Origin: Candidatus Cloacimonadota bacterium
GTDB lineage: Bacteria > Cloacimonadota > Cloacimonadia > Cloacimonadales > TCS61
DNA: 64,000 nt
NCBI GenBank assembly: GCA_021735645.1
Contig: JAIPGP010000007.1
Location: 36 to 64,035 of the forward strand
Reading direction: 5' to 3'
Shown piece by piece: positions 20,674 through 27,367 of this stretch. A program made the position numbers and the translations under genes. How positions within the stretch are numbered: the first letter of the stretch is position 1; the number at the start of each line of letters is the position of its first letter. The notes under the pieces are model-generated. The model made no database searches, was not told the DNA's origin, and saw only the letters and a program-made list of their open reading frames with translations.

Positions 20674-22491
20674 TTAATCCCTCTCGACCTTCAATACTTC
20701 CAGAAATGCCTCTTGAGGAACCTGCACGCTGCCTATCTCTTTCATCCGCTTCTTGCCTTCTTTCTGCTTCTCCAGAAGTTTGCGTTTTCTCGTAATATCA
20801 CCGCCATAGCATTTTGCGGTTACATCTTTTCTTACTGGATTGATCGTGCTTCGCGCTATAATCTTGGAGCCAATGCTTGCCTGTAGTGCTACTTTATATA
20901 ACTGTCGAGGGATTACTTCCTGCAGTTTCTCAGTTACGCTCTTACCCCAGCTGTAGGCTTTGCTTTCATGGCAGATAAAACTCATGGCATCCACTTTCTC
21001 GCTGTTGATCAAAATATCCACTTTCACCACTGCTGACCGCTGATACCTTTTAAATTGATAGTCCAGCGAGGCATAACCGCGGCTCACGGATTTCAATTTA
21101 TCATAAAAATCAAAGATGATCTCTATCAAAGGCAGATCATATTTCAATGATAACCGCTTCTCGTCTATGTACTGCAAATCAGTCTGCACACCTCGCCGTT
21201 CCTGGCAAAGCTTCATGATATTGCCCACATATTCCGCAGGTACTATGATCTCCACGTCCATTATAGGCTCTTCTATAAAATTCACCCGCACCAGGTCAGG
21301 CATATCAATGGGATTATAAATAATTATTTTCTCACCATTGGTCAGATGAATATTAAACCGCACACTGGGTGTGGTTGCTATTATCTGCACATTGAATTCT
21401 CTATATAATCGCTCTTTGAATATCTCCAGATGCAGCATTCCCAGGAACCCGCAGCGGAATCCAAAGCCTAACGCTAAAGAACTTTCCGGCTCATAAGTTA
21501 AGGCATAATCATTTAATTTCAGTTTGGCTATGCTGTCCCGCAGATCACCGTAATCCTCCTTGTCCAAAGGGAATATGCCGGAATATACCATCGGCTTCGG
21601 CTCTTCAAAACCCGGTAATGCCTCAGAGCAGCCACCCTTCTGAGTAGTTATCGTATCGCCTACCCGGGCATCTGCCACCTCCTTGATCCCGGAAATTATG
21701 TAACCCACTTCTCCAGCGGTTAAAAATGTCTGCTCTTCGAATTTTATTCCCAGATAACCAATTTCTTCTATTTTAAATTCTTTTTTATTAGAGAACAGCC
21801 GGATCATATCGCCCCGGCGTAGCCTGCCGTCAAACACCCTCACCAGCACCACTACACCCCGGTAGGGATCAAAGTAGGAGTCAAAGATTAGTGCTTTCGC
21901 CGGAGCATCTATTGTGCCCTTAGGCTGAGGTATTTTTTCCACTACCCCACGTAATAACTCATCTATTCCGATGCCCTGTTTGGCGCTTATGCGAAATATT
22001 TCGGATTTGGTTACGCCCATTGTCTCTTCTATTTCATGGGAAGTGCCATCTACATCTGCTTTGGGTAAGTCTACCTTATTGATCACTGGAATTATCTCCA
22101 GATTGTTCTCCAGTGCCAGATACATATTGCTCATCGTCTGTGCCTCAATCCCCTGTGCTGCATCTACCAGTAACAATGCCCCTTCACAGGAAGATAAACT
22201 CCGCGAAACTTCATAAGAAAAATCTACATGACCCGGTGTATCTATCAGATTTAAGATATATGTTTTACCCTCATATTTATAAGGAAGCCGGATAGCATGT
22301 GACTTGATCGTGATTCCGCGTTCCCGCTCCAGATCCATGTCATCAAGCACCTGATCCAGCTGCTTGCCATGCACAATTACACCTGTCTCCTCCAGCATCC
22401 GGTCTGCCAAAGTAGATTTTCCATGATCAATGTGAGCGATTATGCAAAAATTCCGTATCCGCTCCTGAGCTATCTCTATGTTCTTTGCCAA
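20674..22491 (-). CDS. lepA: translation elongation factor 4 (LepA)
   Basis: 605-aa ORF with a TTG start and AAGGAG SD 7 nt upstream. It has the GTPase motifs IIAHIDHGKSTL, DTPGHVDF and NKVD. Length and C-terminal region are typical of LepA. Confidence 0.95.
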   Translation of the reverse strand: MAKNIEIAQERIRNFCIIAHIDHGKSTLADRMLEETGVIVHGKQLDQVLDDMDLERERGITIKSHAIRLPYKYEGKTYILNLIDTPGHVDFSYEVSRSLSSCEGALLLVDAAQGIEAQTMSNMYLALENNLEIIPVINKVDLPKADVDGTSHEIEETMGVTKSEIFRISAKQGIGIDELLRGVVEKIPQPKGTIDAPAKALIFDSYFDPYRGVVVLVRVFDGRLRRGDMIRLFSNKKEFKIEEIGYLGIKFEEQTFLTAGEVGYIISGIKEVADARVGDTITTQKGGCSEALPGFEEPKPMVYSGIFPLDKEDYGDLRDSIAKLKLNDYALTYEPESSLALGFGFRCGFLGMLHLEIFKERLYREFNVQIIATTPSVRFNIHLTNGEKIIIYNPIDMPDLVRVNFIEEPIMDVEIIVPAEYVGNIMKLCQERRGVQTDLQYIDEKRLSLKYDLPLIEIIFDFYDKLKSVSRGYASLDYQFKRYQRSAVVKVDILINSEKVDAMSFICHESKAYSWGKSVTEKLQEVIPRQLYKVALQASIGSKIIARSTINPVRKDVTAKCYGGDITRKRKLLEKQKEGKKRMKEIGSVQVPQEAFLEVLKVERD

Positions 22492-23050
22492 TTACATTCT
22501 CCTTCGTTCAATTCTGAACCTTTCAAATTTTATTCAAGTTCTCTCCTGTCAATCTAAATTATTCTCTGACACAAAATTATGGCATTGCTACAATTTAATC
22601 ATGTAGCTTAATCCTCCCGGATTAAGCATTAGGTTCCATCAAACTGGAAAGTTTGATCTACTTAGATGTATGCCTGATATACGTACTATATAGATATTGT
22701 AGTCCTGATAGAGCTAATATAAGTAGTAACTCTGTTCCATACTCCTGTAACCCACAGGGAAGCCACTCGGATGCTACAGGGAGAGTATAGTGGACTGAAT
22801 ATTTACGTAGGATATTTATTTGCAGTTTAATATGCTTTTATAGCCTCAAAAAAAGGAGGATTTTTTATTTTGGAACGACTTGGACAATATTTATCGTCGA
22901 AGAAAACGTATTTTATATTAAGTAACAATAGTTCTAATTATCAGATGTTTAATGGTTTAATAAGTGAGAGGAAGTCAGCTTATTTCAAATATTTTCTTAA
23001 TCTGATATATTAAATAAATTATTTCTTGTGCCAATAAGTATTTTAGAATG

Positions 23051-23322
23051 CCAGACCAGGGATGGTCTGGATACGTAGAAACTCAGACCAGGGATGGTCT
23101 GGATATGCAGAAACTCAGACCAGGGATGGTCTGGATACGTAGAAACTCAGACCAGGGATGGTCTGGATATGCAGAAACCCAGACCAGGGATGGTCTGGAT
23201 ACGCAGAAACCCAGACCAGGGATGGTCTGGATACGTAGAAACCCAGACCAGGGATGGTCTGGATACGTAGAAACTCAGACCAGGGATGGTCTGGATACGC
23301 AGAAATCCAGACCAGGGATGGA
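23051..23322. repeat. 32-bp tandem repeat, 8 full + 1 truncated unit, each carrying the hairpin CCAGACC-agggat-GGTCTGG
   Basis: The CAGACC register falls at 23052, 23084, 23116, 23148, 23180, 23212, 23244, 23276 and 23308. The 19-nt hairpin core is identical in all units. The 13-nt linker (atacgtagaaact) varies at 4 positions, always by transitions. Confidence 0.95.
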
Positions 23323-23496
23323 TAGGCACACCCGCCACTGAGTCCACCATGTCCACTGCGTCTTGTTTAGTTCTGGAATGGAAATTGCATTGTATTCATT
23401 TTAGATGGGGTATGGGTACAAAATAGAGGCTTTATCGTATAAAACCTGTAATTATTTTTGACAATGGGAGATAATATGTTAACGGAGGCTGCTAGT

Positions 23497-26352
23497 ATGA
23501 AAACAAAAATCACAATATTATTTTTCCTTGTGTTACTTTCTTATGCCCTGAATGCCCAATTGCAGTGGCAGACTGGCGGAATGCCGGTGAATGTGGATTA
23601 TCCTCTTTACTGGTATGATGAAAGTGGAGCAGTAGTTGATGAGATCAGTTATTATGTCTGGAGTGAATCACAAACAGGGGATCCTGATCTTTATATGCAG
23701 GCTTATAATGTTAATGGTGTGGCAATCTGGCAATCTGATCTGCTGATCTGTGAGGCAGCCAAATATCAAGGTCGGAGTCAAGTGATAGCAGCCAGTGATG
23801 GTAATCTAATAGTTGGCTGGCATGATACACGCAATATTCCGGGGTTATATTTTGGCGATGGTTATGAGATTTATCTGCAAAAGGTGAGTCCCGCCGGTGA
23901 AATTTTGTGGGGTGCAAACGGAGTATGTGTGTCAGATTGCTACCCTTATACTTATCGGCTGATCAGCGATGACCAAGGCGGTTGTTATCTGAGCTTTCGC
24001 TGTGGAGACGGCAATGGGAATTACATCAATTTCTGGCATTATAACTCTGAAGGAGTCTGCTGTCCGAATTGGGAAACAGGGATCTCACTTGATGTAGAAT
24101 TTTATGATTATGAAATGATCACGGATGGCAATGGCAATCTGGTGATCTACTACCCTGAGGAATCTGTTAACAAATTAACCAAGCTTTCACCTTTAGGTGA
24201 ATTTATCTGGGAAGGAATTATAATTACAGATTATTATGCTTCTAAAACTTATCTTTTTCAGCAGGGTGATACTCTGGACATGATCTTTAGGGTAAGTAAT
24301 GAAATCTTCCTGCAAAAGATAGATCTAACCGGTTCAGCAGTTTTTGATGAACCTCTTTTACTTTTGAGCAGTCCTATCTATATCAGTTCCTTCATAGTAA
24401 CTTCGTCTATTGACAGCTATTATATCTATTTCTATCAATATGATACAGGTAACACAGTAATAAAAATTGATTCTGCAGGAGAAGAGCTCTGGAGTAATTA
24501 TCTGAATTCTGATTATAGCTATAGTGGCATTTATGGCATGGGAAATGGTAATTTTCGTCTTTGGCGTCGAGGTTCAATTACTGTCACTCTTTGGGAGTAT
24601 GACAGTGACGGAGAATTATACAGTCCTGAAGAAGGCTGGTGGGATTATGAGAGTGAGACAAATACCTGGGGCTGCATGTTCGGGGTATTTTCAGGCGGAA
24701 ATATCACCAGTTGCGGTTGGCGGCTGATGAATGATGACCCTGAGAATGAAATACTCACCTGCCAGATAATCAATGAATCCGGACAGGCAGTTTGCGGAGA
24801 AGAAGGCAGTGAAATCAGCCGGGGACGGAATAGCAGTCTGTTCTGCGAGAATGTGTATAAGGTAAATGATCTGGAAGCAGTATTTTTGGAATCATACTAT
24901 TTGAATGAAAGGCGAATGGTGATGAAGCTGTTTAACGAGGACGGCAATGTTGTGGGTGCTTCCGCAGGAATGCAGATATCATCACCTGAGGCGGATTATA
25001 GTCAAACTCTGGGTGTTATTGAAGAGAGGATTTATTTTGTAATGGAAGTTCCTGACCCGGAGACTTCCGGTCCTGAATTCCTATATTTGAATGCTGTGGA
25101 TTTCAGTGTAGAGCCGGAACTGGTTTGGGGTGAGGATGGAATATTTTTAGGAGAAGGTGAATTCATTAATACAAATATCAATATGACGACAATTCCTGAT
25201 GAGGACAATGCTCTGCTCTTTACCTGGAATCTGGATAGTCCCCATGGATATGCCCGAGTCCAGAAAATGGTTAATGATGAGTTTGTTTGGGAAGAGGGAG
25301 GAATTATTTATCCCTGGGCAAATTCTGATACACACTGGATAGTCGCTTATCATGACTATATTTTCCGGATGACCAGTTGGGGAAGCGGTTATTTCCTGAG
25401 CCGGGTTGATGAAAATGGAGAGATGATGTGGGATGAAGAAGTTCCATTCAATATTACGGCAATGGCTGATTATCCTACAGGTATTCCTCAGACAGATGGC
25501 AATATGCTTTTTCTAGTGGCAGAGCATACAACTTTTGGCATGCAACTGCTGGAATATCGTATTACCCCTGAAGGAGAAAATCTATCCAGCGACATGGGTG
25601 ATATTGTCTCCTTTTTGCAGGAAGCAGATGAACTTACGATCACTGATTTAGGGGATAGTTATGCCATCTTTACCAGGCAGGATGATGATAATATGAAGTT
25701 CCGCAGATTTAATTATGACGGCACAGCCCTCAACCATCCTGTAGACATTCCCGGCTATGAATATTACGATATAGATGACGTGCGGATATTGAATGAACAT
25801 CTGCTGATATTCTCGCACCTGCAATGGGGAGCTCAACAGATCACAGTGGTTGATTTTGAGGGTATAGCCAGCGAACTGCTGCCCCAGAACCCTTATCAAT
25901 ACCTGGAATATAGTAATTACTGGCTTGGCTCTTTTACCTGCATAGATGGAGATGACATCTATTTCTGCTGGATAGACGGCAAAGCCTCAGAAAGACCTGA
26001 TGAAGGTGAATACGGCATGAGCTGGTATATGCAAAAGTTACGCATTCCCACAACGGTCACTTCTGAAGATGAAATCCAGTCAACCATCAAATTGCAGTTA
26101 TCACCAAATCCTTTTAATCCGGACTTAAAAATTTCCTGGGACACAATAAATATGAAAGAAGAAAAAGTAAAAGTAGCTGTTTATAACGTGAAAGGACAGC
26201 AGATCAGAACCTGGCAAACAGATTCTGCCAGAGACAATATCACCTGGGATGGGAAAAACCAGCGGGGACTCTCCTGCTCAACAGGTATTTATTTTGTACG
26301 CATAATATCTGGCAGAAAAAGCGTCAGCAACAAAGCAGTGCTGCTCAAATAG
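23497..26352 (+). CDS. secreted repeat protein with T9SS C-terminal sorting domain (divergent paralog of 16498..19503)
   Basis: The ORF track starts at TTG 23458. I prefer ATG 23497 (MKTKITILFFLVLLSYALNA|Q), which has GGAGG 7-8 nt upstream. The N-terminal repeats (VWSESQTGDPDLYMQAYNVNGVAIW, GWHDTRN..YEIYLQKVSPAGEILW) match the repeat family of the 1001-aa protein. The C-terminus LSPNPFNPDLKISW..VAVYNVKGQQI..GIYFVRI is a CTD. Confidence 0.75.
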   Translation: MKTKITILFFLVLLSYALNAQLQWQTGGMPVNVDYPLYWYDESGAVVDEISYYVWSESQTGDPDLYMQAYNVNGVAIWQSDLLICEAAKYQGRSQVIAASDGNLIVGWHDTRNIPGLYFGDGYEIYLQKVSPAGEILWGANGVCVSDCYPYTYRLISDDQGGCYLSFRCGDGNGNYINFWHYNSEGVCCPNWETGISLDVEFYDYEMITDGNGNLVIYYPEESVNKLTKLSPLGEFIWEGIIITDYYASKTYLFQQGDTLDMIFRVSNEIFLQKIDLTGSAVFDEPLLLLSSPIYISSFIVTSSIDSYYIYFYQYDTGNTVIKIDSAGEELWSNYLNSDYSYSGIYGMGNGNFRLWRRGSITVTLWEYDSDGELYSPEEGWWDYESETNTWGCMFGVFSGGNITSCGWRLMNDDPENEILTCQIINESGQAVCGEEGSEISRGRNSSLFCENVYKVNDLEAVFLESYYLNERRMVMKLFNEDGNVVGASAGMQISSPEADYSQTLGVIEERIYFVMEVPDPETSGPEFLYLNAVDFSVEPELVWGEDGIFLGEGEFINTNINMTTIPDEDNALLFTWNLDSPHGYARVQKMVNDEFVWEEGGIIYPWANSDTHWIVAYHDYIFRMTSWGSGYFLSRVDENGEMMWDEEVPFNITAMADYPTGIPQTDGNMLFLVAEHTTFGMQLLEYRITPEGENLSSDMGDIVSFLQEADELTITDLGDSYAIFTRQDDDNMKFRRFNYDGTALNHPVDIPGYEYYDIDDVRILNEHLLIFSHLQWGAQQITVVDFEGIASELLPQNPYQYLEYSNYWLGSFTCIDGDDIYFCWIDGKASERPDEGEYGMSWYMQKLRIPTTVTSEDEIQSTIKLQLSPNPFNPDLKISWDTINMKEEKVKVAVYNVKGQQIRTWQTDSARDNITWDGKNQRGLSCSTGIYFVRIISGRKSVSNKAVLLK

Positions 26353-27035: not shown

Positions 27036-27055
27036 CCAGACCTGTGATGGTCTGG
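27036..27055. repeat. orphan copy of the CCAGACC-N6-GGTCTGG hairpin
   Basis: CCAGACC-tgtgat-GGTCTGG has the same 7-bp arms and loop length as the 23051 array, with a different loop sequence. A 10-bp-stem hairpin precedes it (AACCCACTTT...AAAGTGGGTT, 26994..27030). Confidence 0.7.
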
Positions 27056-27176: not shown

Positions 27177-27344
27177 ATGGCAGTAAAAATAAGTGATGAT
27201 TGCGTTGGATGCGGAGCATGCGTGGCAGTGTGCCCGGTTGAAGCATTATCGATCGAAGATGATGTAGCAGTATGTGATGGAGATACATGTGTAGATTGCG
27301 GAGCCTGCGTAGGCGAATGCCCTGTAGAGGCTATTAGTTTATAG
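27177..27344 (+). CDS. 2x[4Fe-4S] ferredoxin (55 aa)
   Basis: My own translation is MAVKISDDCVGCGACVAVCPVEALSIEDDVAVCDGDTCVDCGACVGECPVEAISL*. It has two CxxCxxCxxxCP motifs, an AAGGAGG SD at 27164-27170, and a terminator directly downstream. The listed 27134..27355 (-) ORF is its antisense shadow. Confidence 0.9.
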   Translation: MAVKISDDCVGCGACVAVCPVEALSIEDDVAVCDGDTCVDCGACVGECPVEAISL

Positions 27345-27367
27345 TCTTTTTCCAATGCGAAATGATG

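Follow-up and report, generated by a model that had tools for sequence, protein, structure and literature searches.

Between lepA and a divergently oriented gene for a type IX secretion system (T9SS) cargo protein, a 64,000-nt stretch of contig JAIPGP010000007.1 (assembly GCA_021735645.1) from a Candidatus Cloacimonadota bacterium carries a tandem array of near-identical 32-bp hairpin units at positions 23051-23321. The whole 64,000-nt stretch is referred to here as the window. The locus raises the question of whether such an array serves the neighbouring genes, functions as an RNA, or is a mobile or repetitive sequence with no tie to either gene; an earlier note, made from the sequence alone, had named several of these possibilities. 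The evidence presented below indicates the array to be a head-to-tail tandem cluster of repetitive extragenic palindromic (REP) elements, part of a Cloacimonadota system of REPs and REP-associated tyrosine transposases (RAYTs). We put the probability of this reading at roughly 85%.

Structure of the array

Tandem Repeats Finder described 23051-23321 as an array with a period of 32 bp and 8.5 copies (score 465; 94% of positions matching and not one indel). Scanning the window for CCAGACC-N6-GGTCTGG with at most two mismatches returned the eight array hairpins plus one at 27036-27055, against 0.11 expected; the full 20-mer, with up to three mismatches allowed, matched ten window sites against none expected. 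By REP convention the units are read on the minus strand, where eight complete 32-bp units lie head to tail (23051..23306, minus strand). Each opens with a tag region containing GT, goes on to a stem of 8 bp with its loop of 4 nt, ends in a short tail, and reads [C/T]GC[G/A]TAT-CCAGACCA-TCCC-TGGTCTG[G/A]-GTTTCT. The REP element proper is about 26-32 nt long, with GTAT as its tag (the GT being the invariant part), ATCCCT/TCCC as its constant loop, and a stem with arms CCAGACCA and TGGTCTGG; on the plus strand the loop is GGGA. When folded as single-stranded DNA, the unit (GCGTATCCAGACCATCCCTGGTCTGGGTTTCT) had a minimum free energy of -8.3 kcal/mol on the tag strand and -8.5 kcal/mol on the other strand (z about -5).

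Four columns vary among the units, namely base 1 of the 20-mer and three positions of the linker, and each of them is C or T on the plus strand. Five units have C and four have T as base 1 of the 20-mer, leaving an invariant core of 19 nt. The dimensions of the array and the restriction of its variation to transitions, both given in the earlier note, are therefore confirmed, as is a core of 19 nt; the claim that all variation falls in the linker is not. Counted along the unit, the variable columns are positions 1, 24, 26 and 32, and on the plus strand they show C/T, never G/A. This one-sided pattern could reflect strand-biased deamination, or chance, given that there are just four such columns. 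Two of the four column changes abolish the GT of the tag, which is invariant elsewhere: in units 2 and 4 the tag has mutated from GTAT to ATAT, a loss that suggests drift after the amplification of the units.

The linker, 12 nt long, is itself repeated from unit to unit, which rules out a CRISPR array, in agreement with the earlier note. The sole Rfam CRISPR match, CRISPR-DR66 at 22824-22876, lies outside the array and scored 17.7 bits (E = 4.5) against a threshold of 45. All 8.5 units share a single orientation and one linker, with no inverted pair within the array. Since all units point one way, a bacterial interspersed mosaic element (BIME) in the strict sense is also ruled out; the BIMEs of enterobacteria are likewise intergenic clusters of REP hairpins, but they alternate in orientation and contain defined inter-REP motifs. 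Among the four roles that the earlier note listed without preferring any, the REP/BIME-like cluster is the one borne out, by dispersal, tag, covariation and RAYT linkage, and the array is BIME-like in a loose sense only.

The ninth unit does stop just past the loop, as had been noticed, but it continues as GGATAGGCAC, for which the alignment partner is the right arm of another hairpin, distinct from that of the array (CTTAATCAGGGATGATTAGGCTAC), in a relative (contig L004). The left arm and loop of an array hairpin are thus joined to the right arm and tag of another, producing a terminal chimeric unit (in plus-strand letters, CCAGACCAGGGATGG joined to ATAGGCAC; 23307..23330, minus strand) that is defined by the junction and the alignment with L004. 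Judged by its letters, this unit looks like a fusion of two hairpins and not a simple cut. The right junction of the array is identical in Logan contig L321, an independent assembly of the same population, which starts inside the penultimate unit; that assembly breaks in the array, and the count of 8.5 units comes from a single short-read MAG (metagenome-assembled genome) assembly.

A dispersed hairpin family linked to RAYT genes

A genome scan covering one genome per species with the query CAGACCWGKGATGGTCTGG yielded 99 stretches. The core was present on 25 stretches of the Cloacimonadota MAG JAIPGO01, where 37 copies were counted in the 19 stretches examined, on seven of CAZAHZ01 and on six of JAVCCT01 (Ca. 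Stygibacter frigidus), both of them also Cloacimonadota, and on 15 of CAZRLK01, a MAG labelled Bradymonadales. The other 46 stretches held single copies in unrelated taxa, mostly without a tag; they look like chance matches and were set aside. A metagenome scan with the core followed by NNAC returned 91 stretches, all with a GC content of 31-43%. The earlier note had considered that the motif might occur nowhere else, in which case the array would be a neutral minisatellite; its dispersal in three other Cloacimonadota MAGs and in the 91 metagenome stretches contradicts this. Searching viral contigs with the loose CCAGACC-N6-GGTCTGG pattern was uninformative, the matches listed being single and apparently chance palindromes.

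Altogether, about 300 copies of the family were found in the 1.3 Mb of DNA fetched. Among the 108 copies in low-GC loci for which both neighbours were resolved, 88 lie outside long open reading frames (ORFs), and many of the remaining 20 fall within spurious ORFs that cross repeat arrays. The copies were oriented by their loop, the ATCCCT strand corresponding to the minus strand of the window. Seen this way, 99% of the copies of every subfamily have G at position -4 and T at -3, counted from the 7-bp stem. This placement of GT before the stem-loop gives the layout of GTAG-tagged REPs, in which an unpaired tag precedes a stem-loop (PMC3733652). The two bases that follow the GT vary: Cloacimonadota copies have GTAT, GTAA, GTTT or GTTC as their tag, and those of the Bradymonadales MAG have GTGG or GTAG.

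Perfect 7-bp stems around an ATCCCT loop numbered 198, against 0.06 expected. They differ by paired substitutions around a constant loop and include at least eight compensated stem variants: CCAGACC/GGTCTGG (150 copies), CAAGACC/GGTCTTG (20), TCAGGGC/GCCCTGA (17), CCAGAGC/GCTCTGG (seven), and GCAGGCC/GGCCTGC, CCAGGGC/GCCCTGG, CAAGACT/AGTCTTG and GTCAATC/GATTGAC (one copy each). This covariation of the stem at a constant loop indicates, as far as sequence can tell, that the hairpin is selected for its structure.

Outside the window, copies occur in either orientation, and inverted doublets with short spacers, resembling REPINs (REP doublets forming hairpins), are common in relatives (L193, L148, L138, L245 and L323). 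Head-to-tail arrays were also found, with periods of 31 bp (L322), 40 bp (L160), 52-53 bp (L275), 60 bp (L323/L324), 61 bp (L215), 64-65 bp (L163 and L188), 121 bp (L166) and 129 bp (L155), the repeated unit in each consisting of the hairpin plus adjoining DNA of differing length. The window array combines the shortest period with the highest copy number among the family arrays seen. REPs of the Cloacimonadota type, in low-GC flanks, were also observed on two contigs assigned to other taxa: L154 (CAYPSP01, 'Dehalococcoidales', 38% GC, a contig of 1995 bp; ttGTAAC-CAGACC...ggtggggg) and L165 (CAZLTA01, 'Planctomycetia', 34% GC; tGTATC-CAGACC...ggtttct). These are probably Cloacimonadota contigs mis-binned into other MAGs.

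A check proposed in the earlier note, to look for RAYT genes and count copies in related MAGs, proved decisive, with repeat-flanked RAYT-like genes turning up on six contigs: L245, L260 and L264, detected when every ORF of the fetched loci was searched, and L322, L323 and L324, from contig look-ups. A hidden Markov model (HMM) built from 120 RAYT sequences, run against the ORFs of the window and of the loci fetched by then, detected only the first three. The RAYT-like proteins are 198-201 aa long, contain HVH and YxxxNP motifs, score 25.9-28.2 against Pfam Y1_Tnp (gathering cut-off 23) and match NCBIfam REP_Tyr_transpos with E-values of 5e-17 to 5e-19. The closest solved structure is that of Escherichia coli TnpA-REP (4ER8; E = 2.9e-5), in which HMH and YIYINPVKHG align with their HVH and YVWHNPEKAG. 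Homologues numbered 1842, many of them named 'REP element-mobilizing transposase RayT' by JGI; one, MCF7913163.1, is 74% identical and comes from a Ca. Cloacimonetes MAG.

In all six contigs, hairpins abut the RAYT gene, and they do so on either side of it. The stop codon of the gene overlaps GTAA-CCAGACCATCCCTGGTCTGG in L245 and L264. In L322, four units of about 31 nt come after it in head-to-tail order, GCGTA[AT]-CCAGAGC..GCTCTGA-GTGTTT, whose layout is that of the window unit on the minus strand, GCGTAT-CCAGACCATCCCTGGTCTGR-GTTTCT. In L323 (90-380) and L324 (140-740), at least nine tandem 60-nt REPIN units (CAAGATCAAGATGATCTTG...GTAT-CCAGAGCATCCCTGCTCTGG) lie directly upstream of the gene. 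A nucleotidyltransferase/HEPN gene pair follows the RAYT gene in L323.

The dispersal of the family and its association with a transposase bear directly on whether the array could be a plain minisatellite, produced by slippage and without any tie to a mobile element. The 94% likeness of the units, their transitions-only variation, and a copy number at this locus that ranges from 0 through 1 to 8.5 among relatives would all suit such an origin. However, the same tagged hairpin is scattered over many genomes, covaries in its stem and flanks RAYT genes, and a minisatellite of this kind is very improbable. Slippage may well be the route by which the units multiplied; the unit itself would still be a REP.

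The window holds two further REP loci. One is a complete REPIN, an inverted doublet of a second REP family (22603..22661, plus strand), identified by its pattern and its recurrence in JAIPGO01. Located 390 bp to the left of the array, it reads GTAG-CTTAATCC-TCCC-GGATTAAG-11 nt-ATCAAACT-GGAA-AGTTTGAT-CTAC, with an exact GTAG...CTAC at both outer ends, and shares the lepA-cargo spacer with the array. JAIPGO01 has this architecture too (L189, positions 1769 and 2034), with three hairpin matches of which two show the full REPIN pattern. Logan contig L001, which is from the same population and carries lepA, ends inside the REPIN at 22603-22661. The other locus, found by pattern scan, is a degenerate solitary REP, CCAGACC-TGTGAT-GGTCTGG (27036..27055, minus strand), some 120 nt upstream of an ORF for a small 4Fe-4S ferredoxin (27178-27345, plus strand). 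The earlier note had taken this orphan copy as a sign of dispersal, and rightly so: it is a real copy with the 7-bp stem of the array, a loop changed at two positions and, in place of a GT tag, the flank GGCT. The changed loop and missing tag fit the idea, put forward in the literature, that solitary REPs are remnants in decay (PMC3116915).

The array in its intergenic region

The lepA gene (20674-22491, minus strand; Pfam GTP_EFTU and LepA_C) is divergent from the cargo gene (23497..26352, plus strand), which encodes a T9SS C-terminal-sorting-domain protein. This protein has 951 aa and the same sequence as MCF7911201.1, which comes from a Candidatus Cloacimonetes MAG. The array lies between the two, and its end is 175 nt from the cargo ATG at 23497, a placement that agrees with the earlier note. 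Immediately upstream of the cargo gene is a promoter-like block with the leader (23374..23496, plus strand), context to the array and outside the element, which is kept in relatives L002, L004, L007 and L008. It contains the motif TGGAATGGAAATTGCA (23374-23389), the sole exact copy in the window, with the -24/-12 spacing of sigma-54-type promoters; a leader of about 105 nt follows and ends GGAGG-N7-ATG. The conservation of this block suggests a candidate RpoN-dependent control of the secreted cargo protein. The array ends 52 nt upstream of the -24/-12-type motif and leaves the promoter-like block uninterrupted.

Homologues of the cargo gene were recovered on six other contigs, of which L003 duplicates L002. 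No hairpin was found upstream of the cargo homologue in L002/L003 (80% identity, lepA syntenic), L007 (57%, lepA syntenic) or L008 (Ca. Stygibacter frigidus). In L004 (59%), exactly one unit is present upstream (TCAGACCAGGGATGGTCTGGATACGCAGAA), and 18 bases on comes the second hairpin, with another stem but the same loop (CTTAATCAGGGATGATTAGG-CTAC). The orthologues have in common the roughly 125 nt directly upstream of the ATG, which begin TTCTGGAAT(R)(R)AAATTGCA at sigma-54 -24/-12 spacing; the array sits upstream of this conserved block, in sequence that cannot be aligned between relatives. Since the orthologues keep promoter and leader with zero units or one, we read the array as a recent, lineage-specific amplification and not as a conserved control region or regulator.

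A separate feature was observed in L008 (7100-7285), where inverted repeats of about 40 bp (ctatagagactgttcaacctaagtaattgatatcgttgcaa ... reverse complement) bracket some 100 nt upstream of the cargo orthologue. The pair looks like a miniature inverted-repeat transposable element (MITE).

The comparison with relatives weighs on any regulatory role, including the array of iterons or operators for the neighbouring genes envisaged in the earlier note, an idea not sustained by loci that keep promoter and leader without the array. A cluster of REPs might nonetheless have been exapted at the DNA level, binding gyrase, an IHF-like protein or an enhancer-binding protein so as to insulate or tune the divergent lepA and cargo promoters. 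REPs and BIMEs of enterobacteria have been reported to bind IHF and gyrase, a background cited in PMC3479197 and PMC3733652; the array end lies 52 nt from the -24/-12-type motif; and 32 bp is about three helical turns, a spacing at which every site would face the same side of the DNA. Yet the promoter and leader are retained in L002, L007 and L008 without any unit and in L004 with one, the hairpin recurs at hundreds of unrelated intergenic sites with periods of 31-129 bp, so that a 32-bp phasing is no property of the family, and no binding protein is known. We consider exaptation of this kind improbable. The more specific idea that the units are enhancer sites, prompted by the sigma-54-like motif at 23374-23389, was rejected because the orthologues keep the motif without the array.

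A role at the RNA level was weighed in the same way. Eight stable hairpins with a GNRA-type (GGGA) tetraloop could act as a protein sponge or form a structured 5′ leader of the cargo mRNA, and the loop CAGGGAUG resembles the CsrA/RsmE site CANGGANG. Like the sponge RNAs CsrB and RsmZ, the array presents many repeated hairpins with GGA in the loop. The plus strand of the array region folds strongly (z = -7.5), the change of the outer pair from C-G to U-G stays paired only on that strand, and there is a resemblance to TwoAYGGAY, weak and non-significant (E = 7). The minus strand, however, folds almost equally well (z = -7.25), and copies elsewhere occur in both orientations. Rfam gave nothing usable for the whole window at the gathering threshold or for 22492-23500 at E ≤ 10, and neither a tRNA nor a tmRNA was detected. 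When 22400-23600 was scanned for sigma-70 promoters and terminators, no terminator-like site turned up, and promoter-like sites were no more frequent than in shuffled sequences. Further, the conserved promoter-like block is downstream of the array, the orthologues lack the array, and tblastn with the CsrA proteins of E. coli and Bacillus subtilis detected no csrA in the window. The array differs from CsrB and RsmZ in having no csrA beside it in the window, in not being conserved at the locus and in being explained as a DNA element: its association with a DNA transposase accounts for the hairpin without any RNA. The sponge idea, which the loop CAGGGAUG had prompted, was dropped after dispersal and RAYT linkage had been found, and the multi-hairpin 5′ leader or small RNA offered in the earlier note fares no better. 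The chance that the array acts as an RNA appears slight indeed.

The array probably does not regulate lepA or the cargo gene: it does not share the conservation of the promoter and leader, both neighbouring transcripts probably leave it out, and the scan showed neither a terminator-like site nor a surplus of promoter-like sites. Most likely it is a passenger at this locus, selfish or neutral, in a variable stretch of the spacer between the two divergent genes.

The AT-rich segment that separates the REPIN from the array (22662-23050, some 390 nt) has no counterpart at the orthologous loci; blastn against all fetched loci gave short, weak matches only (L282 and L315). It includes a 47-aa ORF with a TTG start (22870-23013, plus strand) and, about 9 nt before that start, the sequence AGGAGG.

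Proposed origin of the array and movement of the family

As a REP cluster, the array can be given a putative mechanism by analogy with E. coli TnpA-REP, described in PMC3479197, the model being summarised in PMC3733652. The REP hairpin would form on single-stranded DNA, and a RAYT would recognise hairpin and tag, cut at or near the tag, and copy or move units. A single unit already resident at the locus would have been reiterated eight times along with about 12 nt of the DNA next to it, either by reinsertion of RAYT-excised REP-to-REP circles or by slippage or unequal exchange between hairpin repeats. The units may have drifted since then by transitions, including those that removed the tag GT in two of them.

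The family shares much with the GTAG REPs and REPINs known from E. coli (TnpA-REP/YafM) and Pseudomonas fluorescens SBW25 (GI-GIII): an 8-bp stem with a 4-nt loop and an unpaired 5′ tag, high-copy dispersal, inverted doublets, tandem clusters, a repeat-flanked HUH/Tyr Y1 gene and a decaying solitary copy. It differs in its tag, which is GTNN family-wide, GT[A/T]N among the Cloacimonadota copies and GTAT for the window array, in a loop that stays invariant across compensated stem variants, and in its host phylum, Cloacimonadota (FCB group), which is not among the phyla listed for GTAG REPs in a 2013 survey (PMC3733652). In contrast to the classical picture of GTAG REPs, the Cloacimonadota family prefers head-to-tail arrays. 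Its RAYT is similar to E. coli TnpA-REP at only about 27 bits and falls below the NCBIfam equivalog cut-off. Published tandem REP/REPIN clusters (Bertels & Rainey 2011, PMC3116915; Di Nocera et al. 2013, PMC3733652) are alike in that near-identical units, each a REP plus flanking DNA, are tandemly reiterated, and clusters of this sort adjoin RAYT genes in relatives L322, L323 and L324; the window unit, in contrast, is a single REP with a 12-nt linker, arranged head to tail with no RAYT adjacent. The ends of IS200/IS605 insertion sequences similarly present a subterminal single-stranded DNA hairpin to an HUH/Tyr enzyme, one that likewise belongs to Pfam Y1_Tnp, but the Cloacimonadota hairpins are short non-autonomous repeats and not the ends of a gene-carrying multi-copy transposon.

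Several points weigh against assigning the array to a REP/RAYT system. The tag is GT[A/T]N and not the canonical GTAG, a purely head-to-tail arrangement has been reported to be under-represented in most known REP families (PMC3733652), and the RAYT-like proteins reach 62-69 bits with NCBIfam REP_Tyr_transpos, under its equivalog cut-off of 80. No RAYT gene was found in the 64-kb window. The accession of the homologue MCF7913163.1 is 1962 numbers from that of the cargo protein MCF7911201.1, which suggests that both belong to the same MAG, a link that is unproven. The window itself holds the array element at two places, plus the second family, and a high copy number within its own genome is likewise unproven. 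Cleavage of the array hairpin by a RAYT is putative, drawn by analogy, and a host function acquired secondarily would be compatible with the sequence.

The copies in CAZRLK01 raise the question of how the family moves. In this MAG, of 66-70% GC, at least 36 copies of the 20-nt core, unchanged in sequence and tagged GT[AG]G, lie between GC-rich flanks, at loci that include L141, L144, L160 (3179-3317), L163 (11-287), L188, L206 and others. There the REP core adjoins a GCGCC-N3-GGCGC hairpin, and tandem arrays of 40 bp and of 64-65 bp are formed. A CRISPR-like reading of the 64-65-bp arrays was rejected, as the 'spacers' are repeated too. REPIN-RAYT systems are considered to be vertically inherited (PMC5581495), and the presence of the same core in Cloacimonadota of about 40% GC and in a Bradymonadales MAG of 66-70% GC is unexpected for such elements. 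A bolder proposal would be that of an active, horizontally moving REP-RAYT system, with the arrays, of 31-129 bp in period, as footprints of circle excision and reinsertion by the RAYT and not of replication slippage; we regard this as doubtful. The 120-sequence HMM found no RAYT in the Bradymonadales loci fetched, and horizontal transfer is therefore treated here as a hypothesis. If true, horizontal movement of a REP-RAYT system would run against the prevailing view of vertical inheritance.

A literature search returned no report of REP/RAYT for Cloacimonadota, the single paper in which Cloacimonadota and RAYT both occur having a different subject, and a full-text search for the hairpin sequence gave no match. 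REP/RAYT systems are a known kind, of which the Cloacimonadota occurrence is a new member, and the general understanding of REPs is unchanged by it. For annotation, the array and the spurious ORFs that cross it on both strands (23048-23341, plus; 23147-23356, minus), already called artefactual in the earlier note, should be treated as a repeat region, not as genes and most probably not as a regulatory RNA; the array also accounts for the breaks seen here in assemblies of this population. Cloacimonadota thereby gain a REP/RAYT system that comprises two or more families of REPs. The family of the array, with its invariant loop, compensated stems, head-to-tail arrays and copy in a high-GC genome, may serve as a natural model of how substrates are recognised and multiplied by RAYTs.

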